A stretch of 54,866 nucleotides of DNA from a virus. Lineage: Duplodnaviria > Caudoviricetes. The stretch lies in the IMG/VR virus record IMGVR_UViG_3300043425_000164, positions 1-54,866 of that record. One strand, given 5' to 3'. Every line of letters begins with the position of its first letter. Positions within the stretch are counted from its first letter, which is position 1. The notes under the pieces are model-generated. The model did no database searches, had not been told where the DNA came from, and saw only the letters and a program-made list of their open reading frames with translations. This document shows, piece after piece, positions 27,175-46,715 of the stretch. The position numbers and the translations under genes were made by a program.

Positions 27175-28575
27175 CTAGTCCCAAACAAAAGTTGTTTTTT
27201 CTACGGGTCTAGCTTTCCGGGTTAACACATCCCCTGTAATGTTGCCATCTGCATGCAAACACGCGTACTGAAATGCGTCCGCAATGTGAGAGTAACTGTT
27301 TTTCTCGGGTTTGTCATCTGTATCCCCGTTATTTTTAATTTTATACCGATACCCACCGCGTAGTGCATTTATGAGCTCTCGGCAGTCTGGATCGATCAAC
27401 ATCGCTGCTCTACCATCCACGATACGCGTCAAAAGCGCATCAACCGCAGATAACCGAGCAACGATACTGTTTGATTTTGCTGGAATTACTCTAAAACCTT
27501 CCGCTTTCAAAATATCAAACACTGACCGCTCATCTGTCTGAGCTCTCTGCTGTCCTGCCGGGTCACCAATAATCAGGCAAGGCATACCCGGAAATTTATT
27601 CGCAAGCACCGGTTTAAGCTTCTCTCTTACAAATCTTAACGTTCCCATACCCTCAGACGTTAGACAGGCATATGTCAAAAATCGCCCCTGAGGATCGACC
27701 TGACTAATCGTAGCAGCTGGTGTCAAACCAAAATCCATCCCAATAATCAACGGGTTAGTCGACAGTTTGATGTAATTCAGTGACTTTTCAGCCACATGTA
27801 AGTCCCGATCGAAAGCCCTAAAAACAGGCTGACCTGATAACGATTTACCAAATTTTGCGTTGATATAAACATCAACCCAGTCTTCAGACTTGCCCTCTGC
27901 CAAATTCTCATAGTACCCTTCCGGTAAAAACTCAAGCCAATCAGCCTCTTGGGACAATCCGCTAGGCTGAAAGTAACACTCTGCGTTATCCGGTGGATCC
28001 GATAAGTACTGCTCCCAGAACGTATCCATGTCTGGTGGGTTGGTCATCCCCCAGATGTGAGCATTAGACTTACCAGAATCATCGACGCAACCCATGCCAT
28101 TGTCCAGCTTAGAAGGGAAACGACCAAGACGCCCCTGAAGAGCGTTAAAGATGTCTGGGTTAATTTCTCGAAATTCGTCCAAGATACCAAAGCTAGCTTG
28201 TAAAGACAGCAAGCGCCGAACGTCATTAGAATCATCGAGGCCACGAAATAAAATTTCACATTCAACATCGTCGAACCTTAAAATAAATTTATATTCGGAC
28301 TTGAGATACGTCCCCGCTTGGCCGTCCGGATACCAGCGTAGTACGTCAGGGATGGATGTATCTCGCAGCTGCTCTCGCGTATTACGCACCCATATGGCTC
28401 GACTTCGACGTATGCCATCTTTACATTTCGCCATCTTCTTGGCGTGGTAGGCAATTTTCATTATGCCCGCCGTGGTTTTGGTACTACCCACTGGCCCCAC
28501 GATCAACGAAATAAACGCATCGGAAGTCAAAAATCCTTTTACGGACTCGGGTGGTGTGTACTGTAAATTACTCAT
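27175..28575 (-). CDS. terL: Terminase large subunit
   Basis: Walker A GPVGSTKT, Walker B ILDE, TNPP coupling motif, nuclease motifs GMDFG and HIADAFQY. Confidence 0.92.
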   Translation of the reverse strand: MSNLQYTPPESVKGFLTSDAFISLIVGPVGSTKTTAGIMKIAYHAKKMAKCKDGIRRSRAIWVRNTREQLRDTSIPDVLRWYPDGQAGTYLKSEYKFILRFDDVECEILFRGLDDSNDVRRLLSLQASFGILDEFREINPDIFNALQGRLGRFPSKLDNGMGCVDDSGKSNAHIWGMTNPPDMDTFWEQYLSDPPDNAECYFQPSGLSQEADWLEFLPEGYYENLAEGKSEDWVDVYINAKFGKSLSGQPVFRAFDRDLHVAEKSLNYIKLSTNPLIIGMDFGLTPAATISQVDPQGRFLTYACLTSEGMGTLRFVREKLKPVLANKFPGMPCLIIGDPAGQQRAQTDERSVFDILKAEGFRVIPAKSNSIVARLSAVDALLTRIVDGRAAMLIDPDCRELINALRGGYRYKIKNNGDTDDKPEKNSYSHIADAFQYACLHADGNITGDVLTRKARPVEKTTFVWD

Positions 28576-29442: not shown

Positions 29443-29470
29443 ATAATACATCATGTGTGTCTAATGTCAA
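29443..29470 (-). promoter_or_regulatory. sigma70 promoter of the packaging operon
   Basis: TTGACA-N16-TATTAT. Confidence 0.65.
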
Positions 29471-29846
29471 CACTATTTTTTGAGCGCTTCTTTGATTTGG
29501 GTTTACTGGCTCTATGCTCAGCGTAGTGATGCTTTCTGTGGCAGTTGGCGCATAGTACGATGCACTTCTCTCGGATCTCTTTGATTGCTTGTCCAATCAT
29601 GCCATCGTGAACGAGTTTAAAGACCTTACGGTTTGATGGATCTCTAACTACGTGGTGGAAGTCTAAGGCTGCTGGATGATTCTCCCCACAATTGCTGCAC
29701 TGCAGCGTTTTCTTAAATTCATGCCACTCTTTGCGCAGACGTCTTCGCCTTGCTGCCACTGCGTCTTTAACCTTCTGCTTATGGTTCTCGTAGTGGCGCC
29801 GTTGGGCTTCTAGCTTTCTCGGATCGTTCGGATCTTTGTAGGGCAT
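29451..29846 (-). CDS. HNH endonuclease-like protein
   Basis: CSNCGENHPAALDFHH...CIVLCANCHRKHH; probable start MPYKDP. Confidence 0.85.
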   Translation of the reverse strand: MPYKDPNDPRKLEAQRRHYENHKQKVKDAVAARRRRLRKEWHEFKKTLQCSNCGENHPAALDFHHVVRDPSNRKVFKLVHDGMIGQAIKEIREKCIVLCANCHRKHHYAEHRASKPKSKKRSKNSVDIRHT

Positions 29847-29852
29847 TGCGTG

Positions 29853-29881
29853 AATGTAATGTTTTGTATACACATTGTCAA
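29853..29881 (-). promoter_or_regulatory. sigma70 promoter, probably giving a leaderless HNH mRNA
   Basis: TTGACA-N17-TACATT; the ATG begins 7 nt after the -10 box. Confidence 0.6.
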
Positions 29882-29900
29882 CATGGGATAAACCCTAGGT

Positions 29901-29993
29901 GTGGGCGCGGATTTGATGAGCTACTAGCTGTAGGTATGAAGGCAGAAAAAATCCCTACTTGTCATATCCTCCGATGTCTGCCTGACCGCCCAC
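29901..29993. ncRNA. Putative compact pseudoknotted RNA
   Basis: Complementary pairs GTGGGCG/CGCCCAC, AGGCAGA/TCTGCCT, GGATTT/AAATCC and GTAG/CTAC. Confidence 0.55.
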
Positions 29994-30189
29994 TGGGAGT
30001 GTACTTCAGTGTTGTAAAAAAGTGACAGTAAAGCTACATAAACGTTGCCTTAAGTGGGTTAATGCTTCTTTTATGAATCATTATCTATACAACGTGTGTA
30101 TAGTCATATTTTTACCGGGCGCATTACGGCTAATACGTAAGCATGGCCCCCCACCCCCACCCCCTCTGGTCAGGGGGGTATCCCCTTAG

Positions 30190-30630
30190 CCCTCTGCCTA
30201 TGGTGTAGGTCGAGGCATTTAGTCCTCTGCCTATATCGCAGAGCACCGCTACGGGTTGATCTCTACCTGAGTATCCTTGAGATTATGGCGAGTAGGTTGT
30301 CCGTGCTGAATGTTGAGTCATTCTGATACTTAGTAGGCACAATGGATTTGCTGAAACCATGCGGGATAGTATCCGTGTAAAAGTGAGCAGAATACCGCTT
30401 ACACACCTGAGCGAACCGCACTTGACCTAGATGTCAAGATTTGGGTAGATTACCTGAACCGCAGTGTTCGAGTAATAGCGTATCTCCCCAAAGTGTCGAA
30501 AACAATGGCAGACACAGGCACAGGGTTATGAGAATTCCTACCCTTGAGTGCAAAGGTATTAGGTCAAACCTCGATACCCCATAACACTCAAGGGGTTTTT
30601 ATCAAGTGCATTAGCAATAGTGTGCTTGAT
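30190..30630 (+). ncRNA. Putative long, hairpin-dense non-coding RNA or early leader
   Basis: About 10 consecutive stem-loops; no ORF of 60 aa or more; terminator-like stem at 30541-30600. Confidence 0.5.
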
Positions 30631-30659
30631 TCTGACTAACTTACTTAACAGGAAAAATC

Positions 30660-31172
30660 ATGGCTCTATTAAATGCTAAAGACCTCGAATCAAAAATTGC
30701 ACAAATTGGCAAAACCGCTGGTGAGTTGCAGTCTGAGATTCAAATCGCCGCAGTAAATGCAATTGGTTATTCAATCGAGCATGGTGATATTCGCTACGGG
30801 CAGAAGTTGTTTGATGTATTGCCTAGCGGTGTTCGTCGTGCTAGTTTGGTAGCTTTCCTCGAAAAGCATGGCAATTTTGCCTACCTCAAAGAGGACAAGA
30901 AGTTTGCGTTTTACAAGGCTCAGGATTCCTTTGACGAAGTCGCTTTATTGGCTACATCATGGGCTTCCGCTAAGACTGAGAACATCACATCTGAGTATGA
31001 TGTGCAGAAGATGTTTGACAGCCTCATGAAACGCATCGAGTCCGCTATCAAGAAGTCTGGTGATGGCTCGGTTAAGGTTCTCAATACACCCCTGTATGAC
31101 TACCTTCAAGAAGCACAAGACCGCTTCAATGCCGAGCGTGAGTTCGTGCAACCCGAAGTCAAAGTAGCGTAA
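30660..31172 (+). CDS. First early protein, hypothetical
   Basis: AGGA SD; HGD...L...LPSGVRR..L..F pattern recalled from early genes of other podoviruses. Confidence 0.8.
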   Translation: MALLNAKDLESKIAQIGKTAGELQSEIQIAAVNAIGYSIEHGDIRYGQKLFDVLPSGVRRASLVAFLEKHGNFAYLKEDKKFAFYKAQDSFDEVALLATSWASAKTENITSEYDVQKMFDSLMKRIESAIKKSGDGSVKVLNTPLYDYLQEAQDRFNAEREFVQPEVKVA

Positions 31173-31183
31173 TCTCGCACCCT

Positions 31184-31203
31184 GCACCGCCTACGGGCGG
31201 TGC
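31184..31203 (+). other. GC-rich hairpin with cUACGg loop (RNA stability or processing element)
   Basis: GCACCGC-CTACGG-GCGGTGC with no U-tract. Confidence 0.55.
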
Positions 31204-31238
31204 TACATTAAATCCACAACACTCATTGGAGTTATCTT

Positions 31239-31412
31239 ATGGGCTATTCTCTGCAATGTTTGAAGTTTGCTAATCCTGTAATCCCCAAGGGTGCGTATGC
31301 ATCCAAGACTTATGCCAACAAACGGGACAACCGCAAACCATCTGCCGTAGAAATTTATAAACCAAACGCATCAGGTGCATTAGAACTTGTAGTGCGTGTA
31401 TCAATTAAATGA
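31239..31412 (+). CDS. Hypothetical 57-aa protein (not in the ORF track)
   Basis: GGAG SD; MGYSLQCLKFANP... Confidence 0.6.
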   Translation: MGYSLQCLKFANPVIPKGAYASKTYANKRDNRKPSAVEIYKPNASGALELVVRVSIK

Positions 31413-31443
31413 ATTATGTGTGTCCGATGTATCCACAAGTGGG

Positions 31444-31731
31444 GTAATTATCCAATTTGAGGGTGTTAAAAAACGGATAATTACAACGGATAATTACAAA
31501 CCCTTATAAATCAATACTTTGGAAGGGTATTTATCTAATTATCCAATTATCCAATAAAAATATATATATCGAAAAGTATTTGGATTGCTTGGACACTATG
31601 TGTGCGTGTATGAATATATCTCTCGTATATGGATTATATAGGGGGGCATTTTCCGAAAATCAGCAAAACGGATAATTACATGCAACCCATTGAATTCATT
31701 ACACTTTGTATTTATCCATTCTAATTATCCG
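31444..31731. repeat. Iteron-like GGATAATTAC repeats in both orientations within an AT-rich non-coding region
   Basis: About 7 copies; ACGGATAATTACA occurs three times. Confidence 0.8.
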
Positions 31732-31800
31732 CTTTCTATCCCACCCAAAAACTACATAAAATCCATTCAATCCATCACATTTTTTAGAGGAATCCCGATC

Positions 31801-31959
31801 ATGCAAAACTTCGACGCATACGAAAAAGACCGTAAAAAATTCATCGAATCCACAAAACCCCCGATTGAGGAGCGGTATGGAAATCTGCTTTTAGGGTTCA
31901 CGATCCTCTATTTCGGAGGTCATCTCATATATCAGTTATACCTACATTGGGGAGGGTAA
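31801..31959 (+). CDS. Small membrane protein
   Basis: GAGG SD before MQNFD; C-terminal transmembrane segment. Confidence 0.65.
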   Translation: MQNFDAYEKDRKKFIESTKPPIEERYGNLLLGFTILYFGGHLIYQLYLHWGG

Positions 31960-31963
31960 TCAA

Positions 31964-32191
31964 ATGAATTATTTGTGCGTAGCTTGTTACGGAGGTCATG
32001 TCAATCCAGAACGGGCAAAAGCCCTAACTAAAAACAATCAACCCATCACATGCATCGAATGTGGTGATGCACTAGCCAAACAAAAGGCGAAGATGTATAC
32101 AGTTGCACCGATGCACAAATCTAACTATGTTCTTGTAACTAATCGGGATGACCTGAAAGGTTTGAACAATAAGGGAGGGCTGATTAAATGA
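31964..32191 (+). CDS. Zinc-finger protein (DksA/TraR-like C4)
   Basis: CVAC...ERAKAL...CIEC. Confidence 0.7.
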   Translation: MNYLCVACYGGHVNPERAKALTKNNQPITCIECGDALAKQKAKMYTVAPMHKSNYVLVTNRDDLKGLNNKGGLIK

Positions 32192-32784
32192 CCGCTCGAA
32201 TAGATTTGACAGGAAAGCAGTTCAATAGGCTAACAGTCCTAGGGTATTCACATACAGATACACGTGGTCAAGCAAAGTGGCTTTGTCGGTGTGAGTGCGG
32301 GACAGAGAAGACCTATTTCGGAAGTTCTCTTAAAAAGAAAAATACCCAATCTTGCGGGTGTTTGCATAGGGACATCATAAGCGGTATGAATAATTACCAA
32401 GCGAAACGAGCATTAGAAAAGCATGGGGATTACATACGAGCAGATGACCCATGGTATGAGAGGGCGGGTGCACTCATGAGAAATGCGAAACGAAACAACG
32501 TGCATGTTGAATTTGAATCAATCGCTGAGTTTGCTCTCTATGTGAAGTCCATCGCACCCGAAAAATGCCCTGTATTTGGGGTGAAGTTCGCTGAGACAGG
32601 TAATGGATATAGTCCTTGGAGTCCGAGCATAGACAAAATTATTCCTGAAAAGGGGTATGCGAGGGGCAACATACAGATTATTAGTTATATGGCTAATGCC
32701 ATGAAGCGAGACGCCTCAATCAAACAACTTATACAGTTTGCGTATTGGATATTAAAAACTTTTGTTAAGGCAAAACATGCCTAA
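32188..32784 (+). CDS. Homing-endonuclease-like HNH protein
   Basis: IDLTGKQFNRLTVL...WLCRCECG N-terminal domain; SIDKIIPEKGYARGNIQIIS..AN..K nuclease motif. Confidence 0.8.
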   Translation: MTARIDLTGKQFNRLTVLGYSHTDTRGQAKWLCRCECGTEKTYFGSSLKKKNTQSCGCLHRDIISGMNNYQAKRALEKHGDYIRADDPWYERAGALMRNAKRNNVHVEFESIAEFALYVKSIAPEKCPVFGVKFAETGNGYSPWSPSIDKIIPEKGYARGNIQIISYMANAMKRDASIKQLIQFAYWILKTFVKAKHA

Positions 32785-32965
32785 ATACATAGCACTCATC
32801 ATATCCATAGTATCCCTAGCTTTTCTTATTGGGTATTTGCTACATATAATTAGTGAAGACATGAAAGGGAATCCCAATGGCGACACATTACAAAGGAAAA
32901 CCGATCGAGGAAATACTCGACGAACTACGAACGGCAAAAGACGTATTCGATCAGGTAGACCCTGA
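32777..32965 (+). CDS. Small membrane protein
   Basis: N-terminal transmembrane segment; overlaps its neighbours. Confidence 0.5.
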   Translation: MPKYIALIISIVSLAFLIGYLLHIISEDMKGNPNGDTLQRKTDRGNTRRTTNGKRRIRSGRP

Positions 32966-33071
32966 CTCATTAGACCATTCCATGTTTGCCAAGGTGTGTA
33001 GAGGTTATGCATATATCGCTATCGCCAAGGCAAAACTAACCGCATTACAACGGGAGGACATTAAACCATGA
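32877..33071 (+). CDS. Hypothetical protein
   Basis: ORF in a tightly packed operon. Confidence 0.65.
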   Translation: MATHYKGKPIEEILDELRTAKDVFDQVDPDSLDHSMFAKVCRGYAYIAIAKAKLTALQREDIKP

Positions 33072-33337
33072 CAACATTTACCACAGAGGACAGAGTAATG
33101 GCAGAAGTAATTAAACCCGTGGAGCTGCCAGCGGGCAACGACTTACGACCCAAGCTACAAATTGTTGTGCAACTTAAAACCAACTACGGACAACAGACAA
33201 TCTATCCGATCTGCGACAAGGCTAAGAAGTTCGCATACCTTTTGAATCAAACGACTCTCACCCCGCACAACATTCGGGTAATAAAAGACCTAGGCTATGA
33301 AGTCGTGGTCAAACCATCGGAACCGAGGACACTATGA
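33068..33337 (+). CDS. Hypothetical protein
   Basis: GGAGG SD; NYG...YP.C..AK.FA.L...TLT motif. Confidence 0.75.
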   Translation: MTTFTTEDRVMAEVIKPVELPAGNDLRPKLQIVVQLKTNYGQQTIYPICDKAKKFAYLLNQTTLTPHNIRVIKDLGYEVVVKPSEPRTL

Positions 33338-33678
33338 AACGTATTTATGCAGTAGATGATGCAGTAGAACAAATAGAAAACCTCACCGAATTCCAACTCA
33401 AACGACCTGACCAAACACCCATATTCTCAGTAAATCGGGAAAAGACTTATACGGTTTATTCATATGGAGAACATTACCCAATGTATGTATACGATAGGAC
33501 TGTTGATCGTTGGTATGGTAATGCAGACAAATACTCTCGCACGACATCGAAGCACATGAATAAGTTACGACCTGAGTGTGGGGTGTATCAGTATGTAAAT
33601 ACAGCTAGGCTTAAAGTAATAGCATACAATGGCATACTTCAAACTGTTACTAACCGAATGGAAGAGAGTTATGCCTAG
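33334..33678 (+). CDS. Hypothetical protein
   Basis: YTVYSYG...KYSRTTSKH motif. Confidence 0.75.
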   Translation: MKRIYAVDDAVEQIENLTEFQLKRPDQTPIFSVNREKTYTVYSYGEHYPMYVYDRTVDRWYGNADKYSRTTSKHMNKLRPECGVYQYVNTARLKVIAYNGILQTVTNRMEESYA

Positions 33679-33883
33679 ATCGTATATCCCCAAATCATTT
33701 GGGGCAATAGAAAGACCTGACCGCACCGCACCAACTCAGAGGGCTATGACGCTCGAAGAGATCGCTGATGTATTTGGCACAAGTCGGGAACGGATCAGGC
33801 AGATAGAGCAAATGGCACTCCGTAAGATACGGGGTAGGCTACGAGCAAGAGGAATAGATATTAAAGATTACTTACCTGACTAG
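33671..33883 (+). CDS. Stand-alone sigma70 region 4 protein, copy 1
   Basis: MTLEEIADVFGTSRERIRQIEQMALRKIR closely matches RpoD region 4.2. Confidence 0.85.
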   Translation: MPRSYIPKSFGAIERPDRTAPTQRAMTLEEIADVFGTSRERIRQIEQMALRKIRGRLRARGIDIKDYLPD

Positions 33884-33890
33884 GACTAAC

Positions 33891-34079
33891 ATGCCATCTA
33901 AAAAACCAAAGACTAAACCGTTTGACGGAATTCCCCGAGCCATGACGCTTGAGGAAGTAAGCACAGTCCTTGGCTTGAGTAGGGAAAGTATTAGCCGTAT
34001 CGAAAAGCGAGCGATGTATAAGATCGAATCGTATCTACGAGCAAGGCGAACAAAGAAGGAAGACTTACTTCCTGATTAG
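33891..34079 (+). CDS. Stand-alone sigma70 region 4 protein, copy 2
   Basis: MTLEEVSTVLGLSRESISRIEKRAMYKI; shares RAMTLEE, LRAR and D.LPD with copy 1. Confidence 0.8.
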   Translation: MPSKKPKTKPFDGIPRAMTLEEVSTVLGLSRESISRIEKRAMYKIESYLRARRTKKEDLLPD

Positions 34080-34122
34080 GGTAACTCCTACCTAGGGTTT
34101 TCCCTAGGTGTGAAGTGCAGTG

Positions 34123-34150
34123 GGGCAGACCTTAGGGTTCTGCCTTTTTT
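34123..34150 (+). terminator. Intrinsic terminator
   Basis: GGCAGA...TCTGCC followed by TTTTTT. Confidence 0.75.
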
Positions 34151-34174
34151 ATTATTAACTTACTGAAAGGCAAT

Positions 34175-35158
34175 ATGAAATTCTCTGACATAAAACAATC
34201 CATAGTGGCTCAGTTCAACACCACTAACGCAGTTGTGCCATACATTGAGGGTGCGCCAGGCGGCGGCAAGTCTGCACTTGCAAAACTTATTGGTAAGGAA
34301 CTTGGCTTTGAACGAGTCGAGATGTTCTTTGCATCCTTGCGTGACCCAGTCGATTTGCTCGGCACACCGAACAACAACGGCGAAGTAACGACATGGAAAC
34401 CACCTGAGGAATTCCACTCACTTCAAACTGGTCGCAATCTTTTAATTCTTGACGAACTCTCTGACGCTGTAACGCCGATGCAGAATGCATTGTGCGGTCT
34501 GATTCTTGAGCGGAGAAGCGGTCGGGTTCACCTATCACCGCAGACCTACATCATCGCCACGGGCAACCGAACCAAAGACAAGTCGGGTGCAAACCGAATC
34601 GTGTCTAAATTGCGTGGTCGTGTTCGCACATTTGAATACACCGAGAACATCGACGATTGGGCTGAGTGGGCTTTGATGAACGACATCGATCCTGTATTGA
34701 TTCAGTTCTTGCGTTTTAGACCTGACTTACTCTCAGCGTTTGACCCTGACAAAATCTGCCCGACACCTCGTAATTGGGAGCGTGTGAATCAGATTCCTAC
34801 TGAACTACCCACAGAAATCTATTTTGGTAATGTGGCTGGCGATGTGGGCGAGGGTGCGGCGGCTGAGTATACAGGCTTTCGTCGTATCTACGAGAACCTA
34901 CCGAATATCGATGGGATTCTCATGAACCCAAGCAAAGCGGAAGTTCCCAAAGACCCCGCAGTTCTTTATGCATTGACGGGTGCATTGGCACATAAGACAT
35001 CGAAGGATAACTTTGACAGAGTCGCAGAATATGTGGACAAACTTTCTCCCGAGTTCCAAGTGATGTGCGTGTCCGATGCCATGAAGTTGAAGCCTGAAAT
35101 CAAAACAACTAAAGCATTTGTCAATTGGGCGGTTAAGAACTCTAACGTAATGATCTAA
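34175..35158 (+). CDS. MoxR-like AAA+ ATPase
   Basis: Walker A GAPGGGKS, Walker B LILDE, ATGN sensor motif, PTPRNW. Confidence 0.88.
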   Translation: MKFSDIKQSIVAQFNTTNAVVPYIEGAPGGGKSALAKLIGKELGFERVEMFFASLRDPVDLLGTPNNNGEVTTWKPPEEFHSLQTGRNLLILDELSDAVTPMQNALCGLILERRSGRVHLSPQTYIIATGNRTKDKSGANRIVSKLRGRVRTFEYTENIDDWAEWALMNDIDPVLIQFLRFRPDLLSAFDPDKICPTPRNWERVNQIPTELPTEIYFGNVAGDVGEGAAAEYTGFRRIYENLPNIDGILMNPSKAEVPKDPAVLYALTGALAHKTSKDNFDRVAEYVDKLSPEFQVMCVSDAMKLKPEIKTTKAFVNWAVKNSNVMI

Positions 35159-35167
35159 GGAGGTCAT

Positions 35168-35431
35168 ATGTATTGGAATCATAGACTAGTAAATGTAGCC
35201 AAGGACAACGATGGCGAGGATTACTTCCAAGTCTCCGAAGTCTTTTACAACGATGCGGGACAACCCGTGGGGTATACAAGTGCTGACGTAAGTGGCGAGA
35301 CCATGGAGGAAGTATTACTTACCTTGCAGAGATTTGCCGAGGCAGTCAAACATCCAATCCTCAACGCTGAGACAGACTTTATAGGCGAGTTTGAGGAAGA
35401 CGATGACGAACCTACGGGAGATTTGCACTAA
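35168..35431 (+). CDS. Hypothetical acidic protein
   Basis: WNHR...EVFY motif; GGAGG SD. Confidence 0.75.
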   Translation: MYWNHRLVNVAKDNDGEDYFQVSEVFYNDAGQPVGYTSADVSGETMEEVLLTLQRFAEAVKHPILNAETDFIGEFEEDDDEPTGDLH

Positions 35432-35940
35432 TGGGATGCGACATTCACATGATGATCGAGGCGAAAGCCAAGACACAAAAGCATGGCGATGTATGGGTCA
35501 CAGTCAATTCATTAAATGCAGTTTACCCCGATGGTTTAGTCCGAGCAGATAGATTGGAAGACTCACCGTATGGGTATCACTACCGTATTGAGATGCGTAA
35601 CTACCACTTCTTTGCAGACATAGCGTGTGTGAGGGGTGAGGGTGAGTATCAAGATAGGGGTTTACCCGATGATGTATCAGCACTAGCACTAGCGTATTCA
35701 GAAAGCTGGGGCTATGACGGACATTCCCATTCATACCTGTATGCCGACGAGATGATACCGCTTTATATCAAACACCATCTAAGCGACGAGGAGAAAGCAA
35801 AGCTGGTGTCTGACCGTATGTCAGGGGGATTAAGTGACATACAAGTATTCCATTTAATTATGGAGAGGCATTTCAACATAGCAACACGAGAAGAGGACAA
35901 CCCACAAGATTATCGTTTTGTGTTTTTCTTTGATAACTAA
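35431..35940 (+). CDS. Conserved phage protein (MGCDIH...FFFDN type)
   Basis: RNY.FF, RGLPDD, DGHSHS and RFVFFFDN motifs. Confidence 0.75.
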   Translation: MGCDIHMMIEAKAKTQKHGDVWVTVNSLNAVYPDGLVRADRLEDSPYGYHYRIEMRNYHFFADIACVRGEGEYQDRGLPDDVSALALAYSESWGYDGHSHSYLYADEMIPLYIKHHLSDEEKAKLVSDRMSGGLSDIQVFHLIMERHFNIATREEDNPQDYRFVFFFDN

Positions 35941-35958
35941 CTTACTAACGGAGGACTT

Positions 35959-36519
35959 ATGGCTAACCTAGAGCCAAAACGTATTAACTATAAGTATGAC
36001 CTGATGCACTTAAACACCCCGTCGTTTGCATCGACGACAGTCACATGGGATACAAGCAAACTAACCAAGATCACCAAGAACAGAGTATTAAACGCATTAA
36101 AAACGGGATACATAAAGTTTAGTAGAGGTGATGCGGCAAATATGTATCGAGAAGTTCGTCAGCGGTTTGAGATCCCTGAGTTCATTGTAAATAAACCCAC
36201 AAAGAAGAAAGACTATGTTCAAAGTGGTTATCTCCATTGGGAATTTAAGACTGAAAAACTTAATGAACTAATCAATCTAATTTATCAGACAGAGCGAGTG
36301 GCACGGCGACTCGAGGGCAAGTATTTGCCTTGGTATATGGAACATGACAAACTATCTGACAGTCAAAACTATATGTATCTTGAGCAAGAGCATGACTTGA
36401 GCGAGATAGAAGCAGAGATTGCACGTATTACAAGTGCTGATGAAATTAGAGACAAACGTGAGCAAGCCATAAGATTTGTCGAACAGGGCGGTAAATTAAC
36501 TTTCACATGGAGGGAATAA
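35959..36519 (+). CDS. Hypothetical protein
   Basis: GGAGG SD. Confidence 0.7.
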   Translation: MANLEPKRINYKYDLMHLNTPSFASTTVTWDTSKLTKITKNRVLNALKTGYIKFSRGDAANMYREVRQRFEIPEFIVNKPTKKKDYVQSGYLHWEFKTEKLNELINLIYQTERVARRLEGKYLPWYMEHDKLSDSQNYMYLEQEHDLSEIEAEIARITSADEIRDKREQAIRFVEQGGKLTFTWRE

Positions 36520-37397
36520 TGCAGATAACTAAACTATCTGAGAAGGCAATGTTGGTAAAACTGACCATGCGTCGGGCTAACCTGACAAAGCGTGACACAT
36601 ATGCTGAGAACTTAATACAGCAACAGCTAGACGATACGAGTTTGATCGTGAACTCTAAGTTGTTTAGGGACAAGGCAAACCCGATCAATAAGATTATGTC
36701 GGCGGCGAATGAGGTTTACTCTGAGCATAAGCGACGGACTCTTAGTTGGGCTGACAAGGGACCTAGGGTTTTACCTAATAGTCAATACATGGAATACACA
36801 CAGATAATGAGGGGTAAGATTTCCCAAGTGGATTCAATGATGCAGACTTACTTACCTAACTACGACACCTTTGTGCAACAGGATATTTCATACAGAAGTA
36901 AGAGTCCTAACACACGGGCTAAGATCGAAGACTACCCAACGGTGAGTGAGTTCCAAGCCAAGATGGGGTTCGATCTAAAGTTTATGCCCATGCCTGACAA
37001 ACGGCATTTCTTGTTTGACTTATCGGAAGACGATGAGAAAGCATTCGATGAGTTAATGAATGATGTTCAGGTAGCCACTCGTAACGAGACTATTGAGAAG
37101 ATGCTTGATCCATTGGCTAAGTTGGTAGAGAAGTTAAATACACCAATCGGTTCTGACGGTTCGATATTCCGAGATAGTGCGGTCGAGAACATCATCGAGG
37201 GTATTGATCTTGCTAAGAAGCTAACTCTTGACGAGAGCCCTGAGGTTAAGAGATTGACCGACGAGTTGAATAAAGAAGTAAGCAAGTATGCCGAGCATAT
37301 GAATTGGTTGCGTGAAAGCCCAATCGTTCGTGAGCAAGCGGCTAAGAAGTTAAGCGATATTGCGTCGCAGATGAGTGCATTCATGGGAGGTGCATAG
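36519..37397 (+). CDS. DUF3150-like helical protein associated with the AAA/vWA module
   Basis: TLSW.D.G.R.LP, DYPT and FRDS motifs; lies between the AAA and vWA genes. Confidence 0.6.
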   Translation: MQITKLSEKAMLVKLTMRRANLTKRDTYAENLIQQQLDDTSLIVNSKLFRDKANPINKIMSAANEVYSEHKRRTLSWADKGPRVLPNSQYMEYTQIMRGKISQVDSMMQTYLPNYDTFVQQDISYRSKSPNTRAKIEDYPTVSEFQAKMGFDLKFMPMPDKRHFLFDLSEDDEKAFDELMNDVQVATRNETIEKMLDPLAKLVEKLNTPIGSDGSIFRDSAVENIIEGIDLAKKLTLDESPEVKRLTDELNKEVSKYAEHMNWLRESPIVREQAAKKLSDIASQMSAFMGGA

Positions 37398-37627
37398 TGG
37401 AATTTACTACGATGGAAACGGTGTTGGCGGTATACAGTGTTGCGATGACTTGCTTTACTGTGCATTACTTTTTGAAGTTTAAGCAAGCCGTATTTGTAGG
37501 ACTCATGATGACTCGCTCACTCATGGGGGTAGCAGTAGGTAAAGTAGAAGTAAGTATCAACGACGAAGGACTCCTAAAAATTACTGACTTAGAGGATGAA
37601 AATGGCAAACCAAGTAAGCAAGATTGA
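37397..37627 (+). CDS. Small membrane protein
   Basis: GTG start with GGAGG SD; hydrophobic segment. Confidence 0.65.
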   Translation: MEFTTMETVLAVYSVAMTCFTVHYFLKFKQAVFVGLMMTRSLMGVAVGKVEVSINDEGLLKITDLEDENGKPSKQD

Positions 37628-38756
37628 CAAAGCAAAAGCGCAGATCGTATTAGATCATCCGTTCTTTGCAAGTATTCTGCTCAAGAAACAGCTTAAAGCA
37701 GACAACAGTATCCCGACATTGTGCGTTGATGCGCGGGGCAATATCTCATACAACGAGAAGTTTATTGACAGCTTGACCGTGCCACAGATCGTGTGGGGTC
37801 TATGCCATGAGGTCGGTCACGTTATCGGTCAGCATGCGATGCGTCGTAAACATCGAGACGCATTCAAGTGGAACTATGCAGGTGATGCATGGATCAACGA
37901 CATGCTTGATGATGCGGGTGTTGGGCAACGTATTGACGGCACAGTCGATATGCAAGGCTCGAAAGATAAAACCACCGAGACTATCTACGATGAATTGCCC
38001 GAAGGCGGTAAAGGTAAGGGTAAGGGTAAAGGCTCAGGTCAAGGCGGTGGCGACGGCGACGGACAAGACTGGGACAACGGATTGGGTAACGATATTAAAG
38101 ACGAGAACCTAACCGAGTCTGAGGTCAAAGAAATCGAGGCGATGAACAAAGTCGATATTGCACAAGCGGCTCAGGCAGCGAAAGCTCGGGGCAAGTTGAG
38201 CGGTAAGTTGGCTGAGATTGTGGCAGATATTATCAACGTCAAAACACCGTGGTATGACATCCTCGAGCGATACATGAACAGTAAGACTCGTCAGGACTAC
38301 ACATGGACTAGACCTAACCGCAGATATGTAGGCATGGATTTGTATCTGCCAAGTATGGCGACTGAGCCTTGCATGGGTGAGGTAGTCTTGCAGATCGACG
38401 TATCGGGTTCAATCTCCCGCAAGGAATTGGATTACTACAACGGACATATTAGTCGCATCATGAAGTCATGCAATCCTGAGAAAGTCCATGTGATCTACAC
38501 CGATACCGAAGTTAAGAAGCATGACGTGTTTGACCAAGGACAAGACGTTAAGTTGGAGTTCTATTCAGGCGGTGGCACACATATGCCTGCGGGTTTTGAT
38601 TACTGCGTTGAGCAGGGTATCGAGCCTGATGTATTCGTATGCTTGACTGACGGTTATACAGACTTTGGTGAAGCACCTGGCTTTCCAGTTGTGTGGTGTA
38701 TCAGTTCAGATGTGCAAGCACCGCACGGTGAGAATATCCACTTTGAGTTGGAGTAA
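37602..38756 (+). CDS. Metallopeptidase-vWA protein (DUF2201-like)
   Basis: HEVGH zincin motif; Gly-rich linker; MIDAS residues DVSGS, GGGT and TDGY. Confidence 0.85.
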   Translation: MANQVSKIDKAKAQIVLDHPFFASILLKKQLKADNSIPTLCVDARGNISYNEKFIDSLTVPQIVWGLCHEVGHVIGQHAMRRKHRDAFKWNYAGDAWINDMLDDAGVGQRIDGTVDMQGSKDKTTETIYDELPEGGKGKGKGKGSGQGGGDGDGQDWDNGLGNDIKDENLTESEVKEIEAMNKVDIAQAAQAAKARGKLSGKLAEIVADIINVKTPWYDILERYMNSKTRQDYTWTRPNRRYVGMDLYLPSMATEPCMGEVVLQIDVSGSISRKELDYYNGHISRIMKSCNPEKVHVIYTDTEVKKHDVFDQGQDVKLEFYSGGGTHMPAGFDYCVEQGIEPDVFVCLTDGYTDFGEAPGFPVVWCISSDVQAPHGENIHFELE

Positions 38757-38758
38757 AA

Positions 38759-38968
38759 ATGGACAACAAACCAGTAGATATTTGGACTTCTTGCCTTGAT
38801 TGTGGTCAACGAGTAACTGGCGATTCCATTCATACTTGTTCACCACAAATAAAAGAGTTAAGTGATGAGGAAATAAGAGTATTTATGGCTGAAATGCCAC
38901 ATTTGACTGAAAGAAAAGATTTGCTGATGTTTGCTAGAGCAATACTAAAGAAAGCGAGTGAGAAATGA
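38759..38968 (+). CDS. Hypothetical protein
   Basis: LSDEEI...FARAIL motif. Confidence 0.7.
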   Translation: MDNKPVDIWTSCLDCGQRVTGDSIHTCSPQIKELSDEEIRVFMAEMPHLTERKDLLMFARAILKKASEK

Positions 38969-39165
38969 AACCTGATTTATCACACCCCAAACCTGAGGTA
39001 ATTATTGAGCGGCTACACAGACGAATCGAGGGGCTCAGAAATGAACTAGAAATTCTGACCGCTAAATATTTGCAGTTGCAAGGCTGGATGCTGGACTGCG
39101 GACATGCCGCAGAGTATGACGCATGGAGAGTAGGTAAACGTATACAAGGGGAGGAAGTATGTTGA
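38965..39165 (+). CDS. Hypothetical protein
   Basis: ATGA coupling with the upstream gene. Confidence 0.65.
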   Translation: MKPDLSHPKPEVIIERLHRRIEGLRNELEILTAKYLQLQGWMLDCGHAAEYDAWRVGKRIQGEEVC

Positions 39166-39275
39166 GTTTATTAACTGCGTTCTTTTTAGCCCACGGAGAC
39201 GCAAGCTGGTATTGGTGGGTATTTTGGGTGGTGTTTGCTTTTATGGAGTTCTTAAAATTCGTAGAGGAGAATTGA
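39159..39275 (+). CDS. 38-aa Trp-rich membrane peptide (not in the ORF track)
   Basis: GGAGG SD; MLSLLTAFFLAHGDASWYWWVFWVVFAF... Confidence 0.6.
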   Translation: MLSLLTAFFLAHGDASWYWWVFWVVFAFMEFLKFVEEN

Positions 39276-39276
39276 T

Positions 39277-39459
39277 ATGGAAGAAGGTATCCCATTTGCA
39301 GGCTGGGTAGATGTAGATAAAGAAGATACAGAAGAGATGTTGCGACATCAAATGCATATCATTTATGCGGAGTTGCAAAAACTTAGAGAAGAAAACATGA
39401 GACTCATTTCATTAGTCCACGATCTTGAGTCTAGGTTATACGGCGGGTCGGTCTTATGA
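39277..39459 (+). CDS. Hypothetical coiled-coil protein
   Basis: GAGGAG SD. Confidence 0.7.
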   Translation: MEEGIPFAGWVDVDKEDTEEMLRHQMHIIYAELQKLREENMRLISLVHDLESRLYGGSVL

Positions 39460-39551
39460 TGTTCGAACCTGTAAAAGTTATATTTCTTGCGGTGGCGATT
39501 AGTGTTGTGCTGATCGCTTTTATTTTACATATAACGGATAAATTCAAATGA
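39456..39551 (+). CDS. 31-aa membrane peptide (not in the ORF track)
   Basis: ATGA overlaps at both ends; single transmembrane segment. Confidence 0.55.
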   Translation: MMFEPVKVIFLAVAISVVLIAFILHITDKFK

Positions 39552-39853
39552 AGAACTTACTTATTGCATTACTTATAGTATCAAGCCCGTTGCAAGCCGC
39601 ATCTATTGCATCCATGAATAACCAAGGTGGGGGCAAGATCGTTCTGACTGATGAGCGATGCAGACTAGCAAAAGGTAAGTTCCCCGATCTTTACCATGCT
39701 TACTTCTATACGGCAGAGGGCATTACGGGAGATGGGTGCTACACAGTTCAAGACGATACGGTTGTCGTCGTGTGGGATATAGATGGGAGCGGCGAGACGA
39801 GGCGGTATCCGATTCGTAACTTTACCTTAACTAAACCAAAGTCTAACTTATGA
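39548..39853 (+). CDS. Exported protein with signal peptide
   Basis: MKNLLIALLIVSSPLQA signal peptide; two cysteines. Confidence 0.7.
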   Translation: MKNLLIALLIVSSPLQAASIASMNNQGGGKIVLTDERCRLAKGKFPDLYHAYFYTAEGITGDGCYTVQDDTVVVVWDIDGSGETRRYPIRNFTLTKPKSNL

Positions 39854-40122
39854 AAAAACTATTACTAATCATAGCGTTGCCAACAACTGTATTGGCTCAG
39901 CAGTCTACATACTTTACAGATAGGAACGGACTACCCGCAGGGCAAGCATGGAGTTATGGCAACCAAACATTCTTGAGTGACCCCGTTGGTAGACCGTTGG
40001 GCAGTGCATCAAACCTAACACCACCAGCACCGCCTGCGGCAGTGATACCACCACCTATGATGGAACTGCCACGCATTGAGCCCATTAGACCATTAGAACT
40101 ACCGCCATTGAGGATTCAATGA
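39850..40122 (+). CDS. Exported Pro-rich protein with signal peptide
   Basis: MKKLLLIIALPTTVLA signal peptide. Confidence 0.7.
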   Translation: MKKLLLIIALPTTVLAQQSTYFTDRNGLPAGQAWSYGNQTFLSDPVGRPLGSASNLTPPAPPAAVIPPPMMELPRIEPIRPLELPPLRIQ

Positions 40123-40376
40123 GAAACCTATACGGGACTAAGTTAGCTGACGAAAATCCTTTTCCCGATCAACCCCTAGGCATTCATTGGTATTCAAGAA
40201 AATACGGAGACGAATTATGGGATGAGGGTCATGCAGTTGGTAGCATTAAGCCAGCTTTTGGTGGTGGCTGGTGGGTTAGCCCATATTGGAGAGAAGATAA
40301 TACCGACGCATTTGATACAGAGGAAGAAGCAAAAGCATACTTAGTAACTATTTACAGATTGGAATCAACAACTTAG
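40119..40376 (+). CDS. Hypothetical protein
   Basis: FDTEEEAK motif. Confidence 0.7.
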   Translation: MRNLYGTKLADENPFPDQPLGIHWYSRKYGDELWDEGHAVGSIKPAFGGGWWVSPYWREDNTDAFDTEEEAKAYLVTIYRLESTT

Positions 40377-40384
40377 GAGAGTGT

Positions 40385-40954
40385 ATGGAACTTACTGACG
40401 AACACAAAGCACTAATAGAAAAACATAGAGAAATAAACCTAAGCTACGAATGGTGGGATGATGTCTACGAAATGTGGGCTGAGAAGTTAATTGAGAAAGG
40501 TATCGAGCCGAAAGACTTTGTATTCAGCGGCTTTTGGTCGCAAGGCGACGGGGCATCATTTACAGGTAGCCTTAACTTATTGCAGTTCTTACGAGCCCAT
40601 CACCTAGATCAAGAGTTTCCTGCGGCGACATTCTTTGCTGATGAGACTTTAACAGCCTCGCTAGTTAGAAGGTCAAGTCGTTATTCCCATGAGCATACAG
40701 TAAATATATGGCTTGATCATAACTACTACAACGACTACGACGAAGATGATTTAAGGGCTAGCGTTTATGACACCATGAACGAAGAACTTAATGATGAGTG
40801 GGCAAGATTAGAGGAAACCCTAATTGACATCTGCCGTGGGTATATGAGAGCCTTGTATTCCGACTTACAAAAAGAGTATGAGTATCTCACTAGCGACGAA
40901 GCAGTATACGAAACATTAGAAGCAAACGATTTATTAACCGAAGTAACTTACTAA
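40385..40954 (+). CDS. Conserved acidic hypothetical protein
   Basis: FSGFWSQGDGASF and YSDLQKEYEYLTSDEAV motifs. Confidence 0.75.
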   Translation: MELTDEHKALIEKHREINLSYEWWDDVYEMWAEKLIEKGIEPKDFVFSGFWSQGDGASFTGSLNLLQFLRAHHLDQEFPAATFFADETLTASLVRRSSRYSHEHTVNIWLDHNYYNDYDEDDLRASVYDTMNEELNDEWARLEETLIDICRGYMRALYSDLQKEYEYLTSDEAVYETLEANDLLTEVTY

Positions 40955-40969
40955 CTAAAGGAGAGCATT

Positions 40970-41617
40970 ATGGCATTTGTAGGTATATCAAAACATTTCG
41001 TAGAGCGTGTCGAAGATAAGATTAATAAGATGCGTGAGGCTGAACTCAAGAGCATAGGGGAGGCTCCTACTATTTCAATCACAGATTCAGAGCCGTGGGT
41101 ACTTAGAACATTGTGGGGTGAGCACCTTCACTTACTTGAGCAGATGCCACAAGAATGGCTTACCAAAGTAGAAAACGTTCGGTTCCAAGTAAAGGTTAAT
41201 CAGCCTGATCTTAAAGAAGACGACCAGTGGTTTAGCTTTAGTACCAAAGCACCTAAGCATGTATATGTTCCTCCGAATACAGATTGGTATATGACACATA
41301 AAGTAGATTCGTCTATTCCCGAGATTGCTCCAGTCTTTGAGTATGCGACCAAGCACAAAGAAATTCATGCCCGTTGGCATAAGGTTAAACAGCAAGTCAC
41401 GGACTTCCTATATTCTTGCAAGTCAGCTAACGAAGCAGTCAAACTATGGCCCGACGTTAAGATGTATTTTGATAAGTCAGACATCGACCGCCTAGATGCT
41501 AAGACTGTGCGTAGTGGTACATCAGAGTCCGAAGCCGCCAAGAAGTTGGCAGAACTTGATACGACTAGCCTGACAAGTGCGGCAGTTATTGCTCGTATGA
41601 GTGGCGCTCAGGTATGA
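40970..41617 (+). CDS. Hypothetical protein (Nmad5-like C-terminus)
   Basis: FL.SCKS.NEAVKLWP motif. Confidence 0.6.
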   Translation: MAFVGISKHFVERVEDKINKMREAELKSIGEAPTISITDSEPWVLRTLWGEHLHLLEQMPQEWLTKVENVRFQVKVNQPDLKEDDQWFSFSTKAPKHVYVPPNTDWYMTHKVDSSIPEIAPVFEYATKHKEIHARWHKVKQQVTDFLYSCKSANEAVKLWPDVKMYFDKSDIDRLDAKTVRSGTSESEAAKKLAELDTTSLTSAAVIARMSGAQV

Positions 41618-41874
41618 GCGTAGCGTTCAAAGTTGCGAGTTCAGGAAGAAGACAAATGGGAACACATCCAACAAGCAGCACAAGTCCTGCGAAGTTAAAG
41701 CCCATCATCTATATCGCAGGCATGTGGCCTTTCTATCAGACAACGTTGTACTGCCTAGTTAAAGGTGAACAACGCATTCAACACTTTGGGAAAAGAGCTT
41801 TGACTGCTTATTTGGTAGAAAGAAGAATGGAAGAAGAGCATGTAATCAAAGACGAAAGGAAGCTCTGGAAATAA
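41614..41874 (+). CDS. Hypothetical protein
   Basis: ATGA coupling with the upstream gene. Confidence 0.6.
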   Translation: MSVAFKVASSGRRQMGTHPTSSTSPAKLKPIIYIAGMWPFYQTTLYCLVKGEQRIQHFGKRALTAYLVERRMEEEHVIKDERKLWK

Positions 41875-42042
41875 ATGCAATACAAATATTTAATTTACGA
41901 CGAGGAAGGTAGCCCGATGAGGTGGGTCTGCACCAAAGCCGAAGCGGAAGAAGTAGTTTCCATTCGGGAGGGGTGGAGCTTCACCTATCATCAGCCTCCT
42001 TCTGCCAAGCAACAATTTACTTTTGAGGAAGCACCATTTTGA
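41875..42042 (+). CDS. 55-aa protein ending in EEAPF (not in the ORF track)
   Basis: MQYKYLIYDEEGSPMRWV...TFEEAPF; abuts both neighbouring genes. Confidence 0.7.
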   Translation: MQYKYLIYDEEGSPMRWVCTKAEAEEVVSIREGWSFTYHQPPSAKQQFTFEEAPF

Positions 42043-42248
42043 AAGACGACGTACAAACCCGACTAACCCGCATAGAATCACGCCTTGTTCAAATCATGCT
42101 ACACCTTGGCATGGATCCTTATAGAAAGATGTATGACGCAAATGCTAGTGAATCACATAATCCAGACCCAGCAAGTTTTAGCCTTAATACACAAAGCGGA
42201 AGCAATAAACAAGAGGATAAACAGTACATCCCTAGGTGGATTGATTAA
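42039..42248 (+). CDS. Hypothetical protein
   Basis: TTG start overlapping the upstream stop; RLTRIESRLVQ motif. Confidence 0.55.
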   Translation: MKDDVQTRLTRIESRLVQIMLHLGMDPYRKMYDANASESHNPDPASFSLNTQSGSNKQEDKQYIPRWID

Positions 42249-42393
42249 CTCGTGCATCTCAATACTGGTCTTATACCTAAGGCAGCCCTCACCACGAGTG
42301 ACTTTACAACAGTTAAAGATCATAAATGAGTTGCGTTTATTTGTGGAAGCTGATAACATACACACCCCACAGGAGGAATTAAATGGCAAATAA
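42142..42393 (+). CDS. Hypothetical protein
   Basis: Fills the gap to the next gene; start position uncertain. Confidence 0.45.
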   Translation: MLVNHIIQTQQVLALIHKAEAINKRINSTSLGGLINSCISILVLYLRQPSPRVTLQQLKIINELRLFVEADNIHTPQEELNGK

Positions 42394-42691
42394 AATGTAC
42401 CACTATGTTTTAGGCAGTCCCTTTATTGCCCAAGATGGCACACAGCATCAGGTAGTTAATTTTTCAAACTTGAATTCTTTTCAAACTGAGGCTGTGAATA
42501 ACATTAATAACCTAATTGACCACGTTAATGCATTGCATACAAAGACACAGCGTTTTGAAAAAGCAATTGCATTTGCTGACTGGGTTGCCGAGGTTTATCC
42601 CGAGATCATTGATAACTACAAGACCTCCGAACGTGTAGCCAAACGTATGGATGATGGCATTCCACAAGAAGTCTGCGAGTCAGCATCATGA
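42383..42691 (+). CDS. Hypothetical protein
   Basis: AGGAGG SD. Confidence 0.75.
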   Translation: MANKMYHYVLGSPFIAQDGTQHQVVNFSNLNSFQTEAVNNINNLIDHVNALHTKTQRFEKAIAFADWVAEVYPEIIDNYKTSERVAKRMDDGIPQEVCESAS

Positions 42692-43038
42692 GCATCGGTG
42701 ACGTAAATAGTAATGAGAAAGGCTCAGGCGCTCGTTATAACGACGACAAACCTGACTTTAGCCTTATCCCGTTATGGACTTTAGAAGACGAAGCCCGTGT
42801 ATGGGGCTACGGAGCAAAGAAATATAAAGCATGGAACTGGGCTAAGGGTATGCCTTGGAGTGTGCCTTTTGCTTGTGCAATGCGTCATTTATCGGCATGG
42901 CAACGAGGTGAGGATATTGACCCCGAATCGGGTCAGCCTCATTTAGCCCACGTCATGTGCAATATACGGATGCTTACGCTTTATGCAAAAACTTATCCCG
43001 AAGGGGATGATCGACCACCACAGGAGTTAATGAAATGA
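42688..43038 (+). CDS. dATP/dGTP diphosphohydrolase-domain protein (DUF5664-like)
   Basis: KPDFSLIP...GAKKY..WNW.KG...RH...GED.DPESG.PHLAH. Confidence 0.8.
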   Translation: MSIGDVNSNEKGSGARYNDDKPDFSLIPLWTLEDEARVWGYGAKKYKAWNWAKGMPWSVPFACAMRHLSAWQRGEDIDPESGQPHLAHVMCNIRMLTLYAKTYPEGDDRPPQELMK

Positions 43039-46650: not shown

Positions 46651-46715
46651 TGAAAATAGGAGTAATATAGACACACCACGAAATGCAGTTTGTGGTGATA
46701 CTCATTGGAGAAAAT

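Follow-up and report, generated by a model that had tools for sequence, protein, structure and literature searches.

IMGVR_UViG_3300043425_000164 is a 54,866-bp, about 95% complete IMG/VR record of an uncultivated virus (Duplodnaviria; Caudoviricetes), and the window analysed here is the whole record. A minus-strand gene block (1-29873) and a plus-strand gene block (30660-54615) are separated in it by a divergent gap of 786 nt (29874-30659), with the packaging genes on one side and the first early gene on the other. By comparative sequence analysis, the plus strand of this gap encodes a conserved, structured non-coding RNA of about 490 nt, which belongs to a new family and is situated ahead of the first early gene. 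The RNA has a fold of at least 14 helices, maintained by compensatory changes although the sequences diverge by about 40%. Large RNAs with strong covariation, several hundred nucleotides long, are, to our knowledge, rare, and each of those found so far opened new biochemistry. Here the RNA is preceded by the sole early promoter that can be seen and followed by the first early genes (30660-31412), a position that makes its function directly testable; we propose that it probably governs the switch-on of the early genes.

Folding and covariation of the RNA

An initial annotation of the window, made from its letters alone, had described 30190-30630 as near-continuous stem-loops forming a candidate large non-coding RNA. 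All the repeats and stems that it listed are found in their places on inspection of the sequence (the two copies of the direct repeat, at 30186-30201 and 30219-30234, are 16 nt long). The region that it delimited takes in most of the RNA and a conserved hairpin (30601-30630) behind it, the start of the conserved element being situated about 80 nt further to the left. As anticipated, the plus strand of 30190-30630 folds better than dinucleotide shuffles, with a minimum free energy (MFE) of -153.8 kcal/mol compared to -122.9 ± 6.0 (z = -5.18, none of 100 shuffles being as stable); the MFE z-score of the minus strand is -2.89. For the full predicted RNA the plus-strand MFE z-score is -4.4 in the window, and in 10 relatives (25 shuffles each) it ranges from -1.1 to -5.1 on the plus strand and from -0.8 to -3.3 on the minus strand. 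Because the z-scores of some relatives are near -1, folding energy alone is weak evidence there.

Homologous loci were retrieved from IMG/VR through the protein encoded downstream (11, then 18 loci) and by two motif scans (13 and 12 loci), and a metagenome motif scan yielded 22 loci. Deduplication left 32 distinct homologous upstream regions, all from uncultivated phage or metagenome contigs (lake-phage sequences); 25 of the 32 extend to the putative promoter, and identity to the window is 60.6-93.7%. The RNA core is carried by all 18 loci found through the downstream protein alone. The metagenome loci cannot prove the invariance of the motifs, because they were retrieved with those very motifs, but the 18 protein-retrieved loci can. 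In all 32 pattern-retrieved regions a TCATG start stands about 56-63 nt past the terminator.

Covariation among the relatives, which the initial annotation had named as a check on its proposal, is strong. Base pairs were counted on plain, sequence-only MAFFT alignments that were not fitted to structure. The 3' domain (alignment A4, 30490-30634, 27 rows) has 94.8% of its cells paired compared to 83.4% when shuffled, with changes on both sides in 16 of 42 pairs (107 cells). The corresponding values are 88.1% versus 77.8% and 12 of 26 pairs (71 cells) for A5 (30358-30495, 27 rows), and 87.8% versus 67.9% and 13 of 18 pairs (75 cells) for A6 (30246-30362, 24 rows), so that over the three alignments double-sided changes are found in 41 of 86 tested base pairs (253 cells). 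In each alignment, none of 500 shuffles reaches the observed paired cells, double-sided cells or covariation score; A5 is not above the shuffles in the number of pairs with double-sided change (91/500 as high) and in further pair types (500/500 as high). Sliding the 3' partners lowers the pairing to 28-51% overall, and to 33-51% in A4 with slides of 1-3 columns. Since several helices are out of register between clades (H8, P6 and P7, and H3 in two rows), the covariation counts are lower bounds. The 81 nested pairs comprise 1759 Watson-Crick, 144 G-U, 36 A-C and 155 other cells, and the excess of G-U over A-C cells identifies the plus strand as the folding strand. The initial annotation had argued for this strand from G-U pairs and from a GNRA loop; the former argument stands and the latter falls, the loop of H10 being GCAA or GUAA in 11 of 27 rows.

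As to the individual stems proposed earlier, CTTGAC/GTCAAG, GTGTC/GACAC, the terminator stem and the 13-bp hairpin are backed by compensatory change or helix-for-helix replacement. TTTGGG/CCCAAA is backed in the same manner in part, and CTCTGC/GCAGAG weakly, its CUGC-N7-GCAG core reading CUGC-N7-GUAG in one distant relative (read by eye, not counted by the tool). Three stems had to be given up: GAATG/CATTC is not conserved, GTGTAA/TTACAC is superseded by the covarying GUGAGC/GCUUAC and GUG/CAC, and the long-range CTGAGTATC/GATACTTAG is 77.9% paired with no double-sided change, its central pairs failing in 8-16 of 24 rows. This last stem also clashes with P4c, a helix of 2-3 bp that covaries. 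The interpretation as a structured plus-strand RNA of no known class before the first early gene is nevertheless upheld.

The region is non-coding, as had been claimed: merely short, non-conserved open reading frames (ORFs) of 31-52 aa overlap it. No conserved ORF was found across 25 relatives, in which ORFs of at least 25 aa vary in position and length; the sole recurrent ORF starts within the putative -10 hexamer, crosses the C-tracts and lacks amino-acid conservation. ARAGORN detected no tRNA or tmRNA genes in the whole window. Nor does the RNA belong to any known Rfam class. With the 4227 models of Rfam 15 (including GOLLD, ROOL, OLE, HEARO, pRNA, 6S, riboswitches, and ribozymes), no family match was obtained in 29500-31200 at E ≤ 10; the four matches reported there are at chance level (13-21 bits compared to gathering thresholds of 51-100) and none fits the strand and extent of the RNA. 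Scans of six whole relatives gave nothing within the RNA. A blastn search of 29850-30700 against 50,697 phage records returned no nucleotide match, and 185,579 genomes of bacteria and archaea, scanned for an exact pattern, had no matches either. With a covariance model (R1) built on the domain 30246-30362, matches at E ≤ 1e-20 were obtained in the window and in five virus records related to it. The occurrence of the same RNA in Autographiviridae leaders was considered and rejected, as R1 matches none of three such leaders and Rfam gave nothing. As far as tested, and within the reach of these searches, the RNA appears to be specific to this uncultivated phage group.

Anatomy of the RNA

The features of the RNA and its flanks are collected in Table 1.

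Table 1 Positions of the RNA, its helices and motifs, and the flanking signals in the window.
Feature	Position	Strand	Observations
Perfect palindrome TATACA-N5-TGTATA	30086-30102		overlaps the putative -10 hexamer; sole exact copy in the window
Putative -10 hexamer TATAGT	30099-30104	+	TATAAT, TATATT or TATATA in relatives (read by eye)
Structured non-coding RNA, about 490 nt	30110-30600	+	both ends predicted
Cluster of C5-6 tracts: C6-A-C5-A-C5, then UCUGGUCA, G6, UAU, C4	30147-30185	+	unique in the window, kept in all clades
Two UUAG-N5-UGCCUAU copies in small hairpins	30186-30250 (copies at 30186-30201, 30219-30234)	+	one copy lost in four relatives
Hairpin H3, GAUCUC/GAGAUU	30258-30284	+	conserved 15-nt loop UACCUGAGnAUCCUU; double-sided in 5/6 pairs, 95.8% of cells paired
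P4 domain, closed by long-range helix AUGG/CCAU	30285-30360	+	double-sided in 4/4 pairs
P4b	30304-07/30336-39	+	inside the P4 domain
P4c	30312-13/30328-29	+	inside the P4 domain; alignment columns 84-101 and 85-100 covary
P5 domain: GCG/CGC around hairpin GGAU/AUCC, helix GUG/CAC, hairpin GUGAGC/GCUUAC	30361-30419	+
Hairpin P6, CUUGAC/GUCAAG	30421-30438	+	double-sided in 5/6 pairs
Long hairpin P7, UUUGGGUAGAU/AUCUCCCCAAA	30440-30492	+	variable cap
Hairpin H8, GUGUC/GACAC	30493-30515	+	double-sided in 3/5 pairs; loop begins GAAA or GCAA in 27/27
Invariant decamer AGGGUUAUGA	30522-30531	+	27/27 rows, including 18/18 protein-retrieved loci
Intrinsic terminator	30541-30600	+	10-bp stem CCCUUGAGUG/CACUCAAGGG at 30541-50/30585-94, then G and U5 (30596-30600)
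Hairpin H10, 13 bp with three G-U pairs	30601-30630	+	98.9% of cells paired, 3 pairs double-sided, one U-G pair invariant
Invariant UUCUGACUAACU	30630-30641	+	stop codons in several frames; unique in the window
Shine-Dalgarno AGGA and start codon ATG	30650-53 and 30660	+	follow UUCUGACUAACU
First early gene, 170 aa, PHROG 1448	30660-31172	+	function unknown; downstream of the RNA in all relatives with a long enough contig

From the TATAGT box, which the consensus promoter scan missed, we infer a start of the RNA near 30108-30112. The right half of the palindrome, GTGTGTATA, is present in 25 of 25 relatives reaching that far, and the palindrome may be an operator or a part of the promoter. Downstream of the C-tracts, the hairpin around the second UUAG shows a change from A-U to G-C within the clade of the window. 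P4c closes a near-invariant loop, UGAGUCAnUCUGAU (30314-30327), and in the P5 domain the GUG/CAC helix and the terminal hairpin vary on both sides. The register of P7 shifts between clades in the alignment; therefore only the base of this helix was counted (82.4% paired). Peripheral hairpins are swapped as modules between clades, with the helix positions kept.

The C-tract cluster shows a separate peculiarity, in that single tracts are inverted to G6, the fourth tract in the clade of the window and the first tract in one relative (L067). Such inversions agree equally with a strand-indifferent DNA site and with a role in RNA. Two contigs (L036 and L068) end at the cluster or 10 nt before it. 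Pairing of the C-tracts with G-runs elsewhere in the RNA was rejected as inconsistent between clades (by eye). A cohesive-end site at the C-tracts was rejected likewise: only two contig ends are located there, the other truncated contigs inspected end elsewhere, and homopolymers break assemblies.

The 3' end of the RNA has the form of an intrinsic terminator, with both the stem pairing and the U-run conserved, and termination activity is predicted for it. Its stem, in DNA letters CCCTTGAGTG/CACTCAAGGG followed by GTTTTT, encloses an inner hairpin (30555-30578) and carries CAUAAC in the loop; 10 pairs of the stem and the inner hairpin show double-sided changes (helices 3-5 of A4), and the fold of the terminator region has z = -4.34. 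Every row contains GGGGUUUUUAU, those of the 18 protein-retrieved loci among them. A simple terminator scanner missed this terminator because of its loop of 34 nt. Two alternative partners are available to the invariant decamer. In 27 of 27 rows GUUAUG (30525-30) can join CAUAAC (30580-85), 50 nt downstream, by 5-6 Watson-Crick pairs to give a candidate H-type pseudoknot. Alternatively, AGGGU (30522-26) could act as an antiterminator by pairing with ACCCU (30540-44), a helix that would overlap the pseudoknot as well as the terminator foot (92.6% of cells paired). The pseudoknot alone does not explain the invariance of AGGG.

A proposed transcription gate and its alternatives

We propose that the element is a leader RNA that gates the access of RNA polymerase to the first early genes and is, in addition, set free as a discrete RNA, a reading which we favour with slightly less than even confidence. 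It is read as a gate because its three invariant strands are laid out like those of an attenuator. The consensus promoter scan gave no promoter in the interval from the U-run (30600) to the start codon (30660). Transcription of the first early genes would thus have to pass through the terminator; the sole plus-strand promoter match inside the RNA (30422-30451) falls on P6, where the sequence covaries and is not conserved. According to this proposal, host RNA polymerase would start near 30110 from the TATAGT box, the RNA would fold during its synthesis, and most polymerases would halt at 30596-30600, releasing an RNA of about 490 nt. The invariant AGGGUUAUGA would decide the outcome. When AGGGU is paired with ACCCU, the G+C-rich foot of the terminator would be blocked and read-through would follow, while capture of GUUAUG by CAUAAC, in a pseudoknot stacked on the terminator stem, would leave ACCCUUGAGUG free and allow the terminator to form. 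A factor of the host or the phage, bound by the large fold upstream, would tip the balance between the two. Transcripts that read through would be the early mRNA, with a leader containing H10 and the invariant UUCUGACUAACU, and the released RNA may do a job of its own. H10 belongs to the 5' untranslated region of the gene at 30660; by analogy with the RNase III site ahead of T7 gene 0.3, it may serve in processing or stabilisation of the transcript. Partial, time-dependent read-through of terminators is usual in phages; in LUZ7 more than 60% of the terminators let substantial transcription through (PMC9163698).

Several observations weigh against a gate. GUUAUG/CAUAAC is invariant in 27 of 27 rows, 13 of which were retrieved with that motif, so that no covariation is possible, and AGGGU/ACCCU is without double-sided change. 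Five of the 27 relatives have a second, independent GC hairpin with a U-run directly behind the first terminator; a switch by alternative folding could not control this second terminator, which favours a released RNA or processive antitermination. With about 490 nt and many invariant loops the element far exceeds known cis-regulatory leaders in size, and by analogy looks more like a scaffold of a ribonucleoprotein or a ribozyme, which suggests a binding partner or an activity of the RNA itself. No conserved -35 is visible before the TATAnT box in the relatives reaching the promoter, 3 of 10 relatives have weak MFE z-scores (-1.1 to -1.9), and the start of the RNA, its end and the read-through are all deduced from sequence features.

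The same observations bear on what else the RNA could be. Its position and its terminator agree with a released RNA just as well as with a gate acting in cis. A stand-alone, trans-acting RNA, made in bulk when infection begins and serving as a protein-binding scaffold or a decoy in taking over the host or countering its defence, or else as a ribozyme, is possible, though on balance we doubt it, and nearly as likely as the gate. Unregulated leak-through of the terminator would supply the early mRNA in that case. The size of the RNA, its many invariant single-stranded loops and its swappable peripheral hairpins resemble those of other large ornate RNAs, the loop of H8 has a GNRA-like start in every one of the 27 sequences, the tandem terminators of five relatives agree with a released RNA, and the C-tract cluster at its 5' end could serve as a binding platform. 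However, no partner or target was identified, the invariant decamer beside the terminator suggests that the 3' end has a role beyond termination, and the RNA always occurs with the same downstream gene (18 of 18 protein loci; TCATG in all 32 regions), although synteny alone could explain the latter. Processive antitermination, in which the nascent RNA binds its own polymerase and renders it resistant to the following and to later early-region terminators, would be the mode of action of the put RNA of HK022. The order of predicted promoter, structured RNA, terminator(s) and genes is that of put, tandem terminators would be harmless, sigma-70-like promoters are fewer in 30600-50599 than expected (21 compared to 40 in shuffles), and a good plus-strand terminator is found further downstream at 39494-39518. 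We regard this alternative as unlikely, the RNA being seven times the size of put with the terminator itself within the conserved fold, and no antitermination RNA in Rfam matching it; the GGATAATTA cluster at 31445-31730 suggests, moreover, a fresh regulatory region, perhaps with promoters, two genes downstream. A bolder reading, to which we give tentative credence, is that the RNA represents an unknown class of large ornate phage RNA and is the first molecule made on infection. It might reprogram the transcribing polymerase by RNA only, as a relative of put that is much larger and works by a different mechanism, or it might be a ribonucleoprotein or a ribozyme with which the host is taken over or disarmed; the pseudoknotted terminator would link the RNA's release to the opening of the early genes.

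Two further explanations are much less probable. A replication primer or origin transcript similar to RNA II of ColE1, priming the family-A DNA polymerase, would suit a site at which gene orientation and cumulative GC skew switch, with an A+T-rich stretch and a G+C-rich cluster just upstream, in a phage that encodes a PolA-type polymerase. A lasting RNA-DNA hybrid would need the opposite of a conserved and sometimes doubled intrinsic terminator, though, the 5' part of the RNA is C-rich and not G-rich, and 31445-31730, with its six exact GGATAATTA copies and AT-rich run, is a better origin candidate; the primer is therefore very improbable. Hardly any likelihood is left for the possibility that there is no functional RNA and that the conservation derives from DNA-level sites (packaging, origin, operator) or from a small protein gene. 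The flipping of C-tracts from C to G resembles a strand-indifferent DNA element, two contigs end at or next to the cluster, and the palindrome and the HNH gene near the terminase genes suggest packaging or operator sites nearby, but these arguments cover 30086-30185 only, not 30250-30630. Compensatory changes in 41 base pairs and a 4:1 preference for G-U over A-C are not expected from DNA sites, and ORFs vary in place and length between relatives. For 30250-30630 the comparison of aligned sequences thus argues that a DNA site is largely refuted by covariation. The RNA offers direct points of attack, as the invariant decamer, the pseudoknot and the terminator can be mutated and assayed in vitro.

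Comparison with known systems

The put RNA of the lambdoid phage HK022, which has two stem-loops in about 70 nt, acts in cis to render polymerase terminator-resistant and, in the simplest model, needs no separate gene product. It is likewise a structured RNA just past an early promoter, before terminators and early genes; compared by description, it differs from the present RNA, which has about 490 nt, at least 14 helices and a terminator inside the fold. Attenuation leaders and riboswitches (T-box, metabolite) share the 5' leader position, the terminator as last helix and a possible competing helix, here AGGGU/ACCCU. They differ in that no Rfam riboswitch or leader matches, in that the present RNA is two to five times larger and is followed by a second terminator in some relatives, and in that its gene context implies no ligand. 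GOLLD, ROOL, OLE, HEARO/omega RNA and raiA are comparable in having several hundred nucleotides, many helices and invariant loops, in their occurrence in lake phages and in having no known biochemical role. None of these large ornate RNAs gave a covariance-model match at E ≤ 10, and the present RNA is a fixed leader of one gene, not a neighbour of tRNA genes or IscB. The pR' - 6S RNA - tR' unit of lambda also consists of a promoter, a terminated transcript and genes reached only past the terminator. Its transcript of 194 nt has no conserved elaborate fold, however, and the late genes are reached via protein Q, whereas no Q-like gene was identified in this genome.

T7-like and phiKMV-like phages have early-region leaders too, among them the A1-R0.3 leader of T7 with its RNase III site. 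In the records inspected, PHROG 1448 homologues follow leaders of 573 nt (Yersinia phage phi80-18) and 1.6 kb (Ralstonia phage RSB3), and in phi80-18 a 7-bp hairpin directly precedes the ribosome site. These leaders differ in having no terminator before the gene and in the absence of R1 matches (0/3), and an RNase III role of H10 is an analogy only. Strong TTGACA-type promoters are present in the leaders of phi80-18 (L078, 1284-1856) and RSB3 (L079, 1-1599), and TGACTAAC-like words stand just before the ribosome site; as TGACTAAC occurs there in only 2 of 7 contexts, it was treated as weak. The long untranslated early leaders before PHROG 1448 homologues in cultured T7-like phages merit a structure search.

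A literature search found no paper describing this RNA. Fremin, Bhatt and Kyrpides (2023, PMC10690425) compiled a catalogue of intergenic candidate structured RNAs from IMG/VR by covarying structures, with motifs of 29-151 nt; the accessible part of that article describes no multi-domain RNA of 490 nt, single hairpins of the present RNA may be among its motifs, and overlap with its alignments is possible.

Genome context

The minus-strand block contains the genes of the large terminase (27175-28575), an SU10-type portal, capsid, tail fibres, lysis and a virion protein of 2275 aa, and the plus-strand block those of a family-A DNA polymerase, an SNF2 helicase, a DUF927 primase and numerous small ORFs. 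The closest cultured phage by terminase shows 43% identity only. Profile searches of Pfam, NCBIfam and PDB with the first early protein were empty, and its AlphaFold model (predicted local distance difference test, pLDDT, 48) was not used. Homologues of PHROG 1448, 24-33% identical, occur in 285 phage records, mostly Autographiviridae; in the records inspected, the homologue is one of the first early genes, situated close to the left end and following a long untranslated stretch.

To the left of the putative promoter, a second conserved element (29901-29993) is found in distant clades too (L049, L053, L054). In relatives, GGGTGG/CCACCC stands in place of its outer helix GTGGGCG/CGCCCAC, and AAGCCGA/TCGGCTT in place of the inner AGGCAGA/TCTGCCT; the z-score of its fold is only +0.2 for the plus strand and -1.3 for the minus strand. 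The presumed genes of the small and large terminase are immediately preceded by that of an HNH endonuclease (29454-29873, minus strand), as in HK97-like cos-packaging phages. The 2275-aa virion protein (1360-8184, minus strand) has a DarB-like C-terminal part and a 140-residue match to the N4 virion RNA polymerase PHROG, outside the polymerase core. An N4-type hairpin promoter for a virion polymerase was rejected, given the location of this match and the single occurrence of the palindrome.

Just past the stop codon of the first early gene an 8-bp G+C hairpin, GCACCGCC-UACG-GGCGGUGC (31184-31203, z = -5.1), is present without a U-run. The gap of 278 nt after the second early gene contains, at 31445-31730, the six exact GGATAATTA copies, which are distributed over both strands and adjoin the AT-rich run (the expectation for the whole window is 0.64); this would be an iteron or operator cluster, and is a candidate replication origin or middle-promoter control region. 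The terminator at 39494-39518, an 11-bp stem followed by TTTATTTT in the gap 39456-39548, is the sole strong plus-strand intrinsic-terminator candidate within the early/replication block. Genes similar to a starvation-inducible regulator (14378-14734), a MazG-type nucleotide pyrophosphohydrolase (42688-43035) and a DksA-like zinc finger (47690-47884) suggest that the phage interferes with the stringent response of its host.

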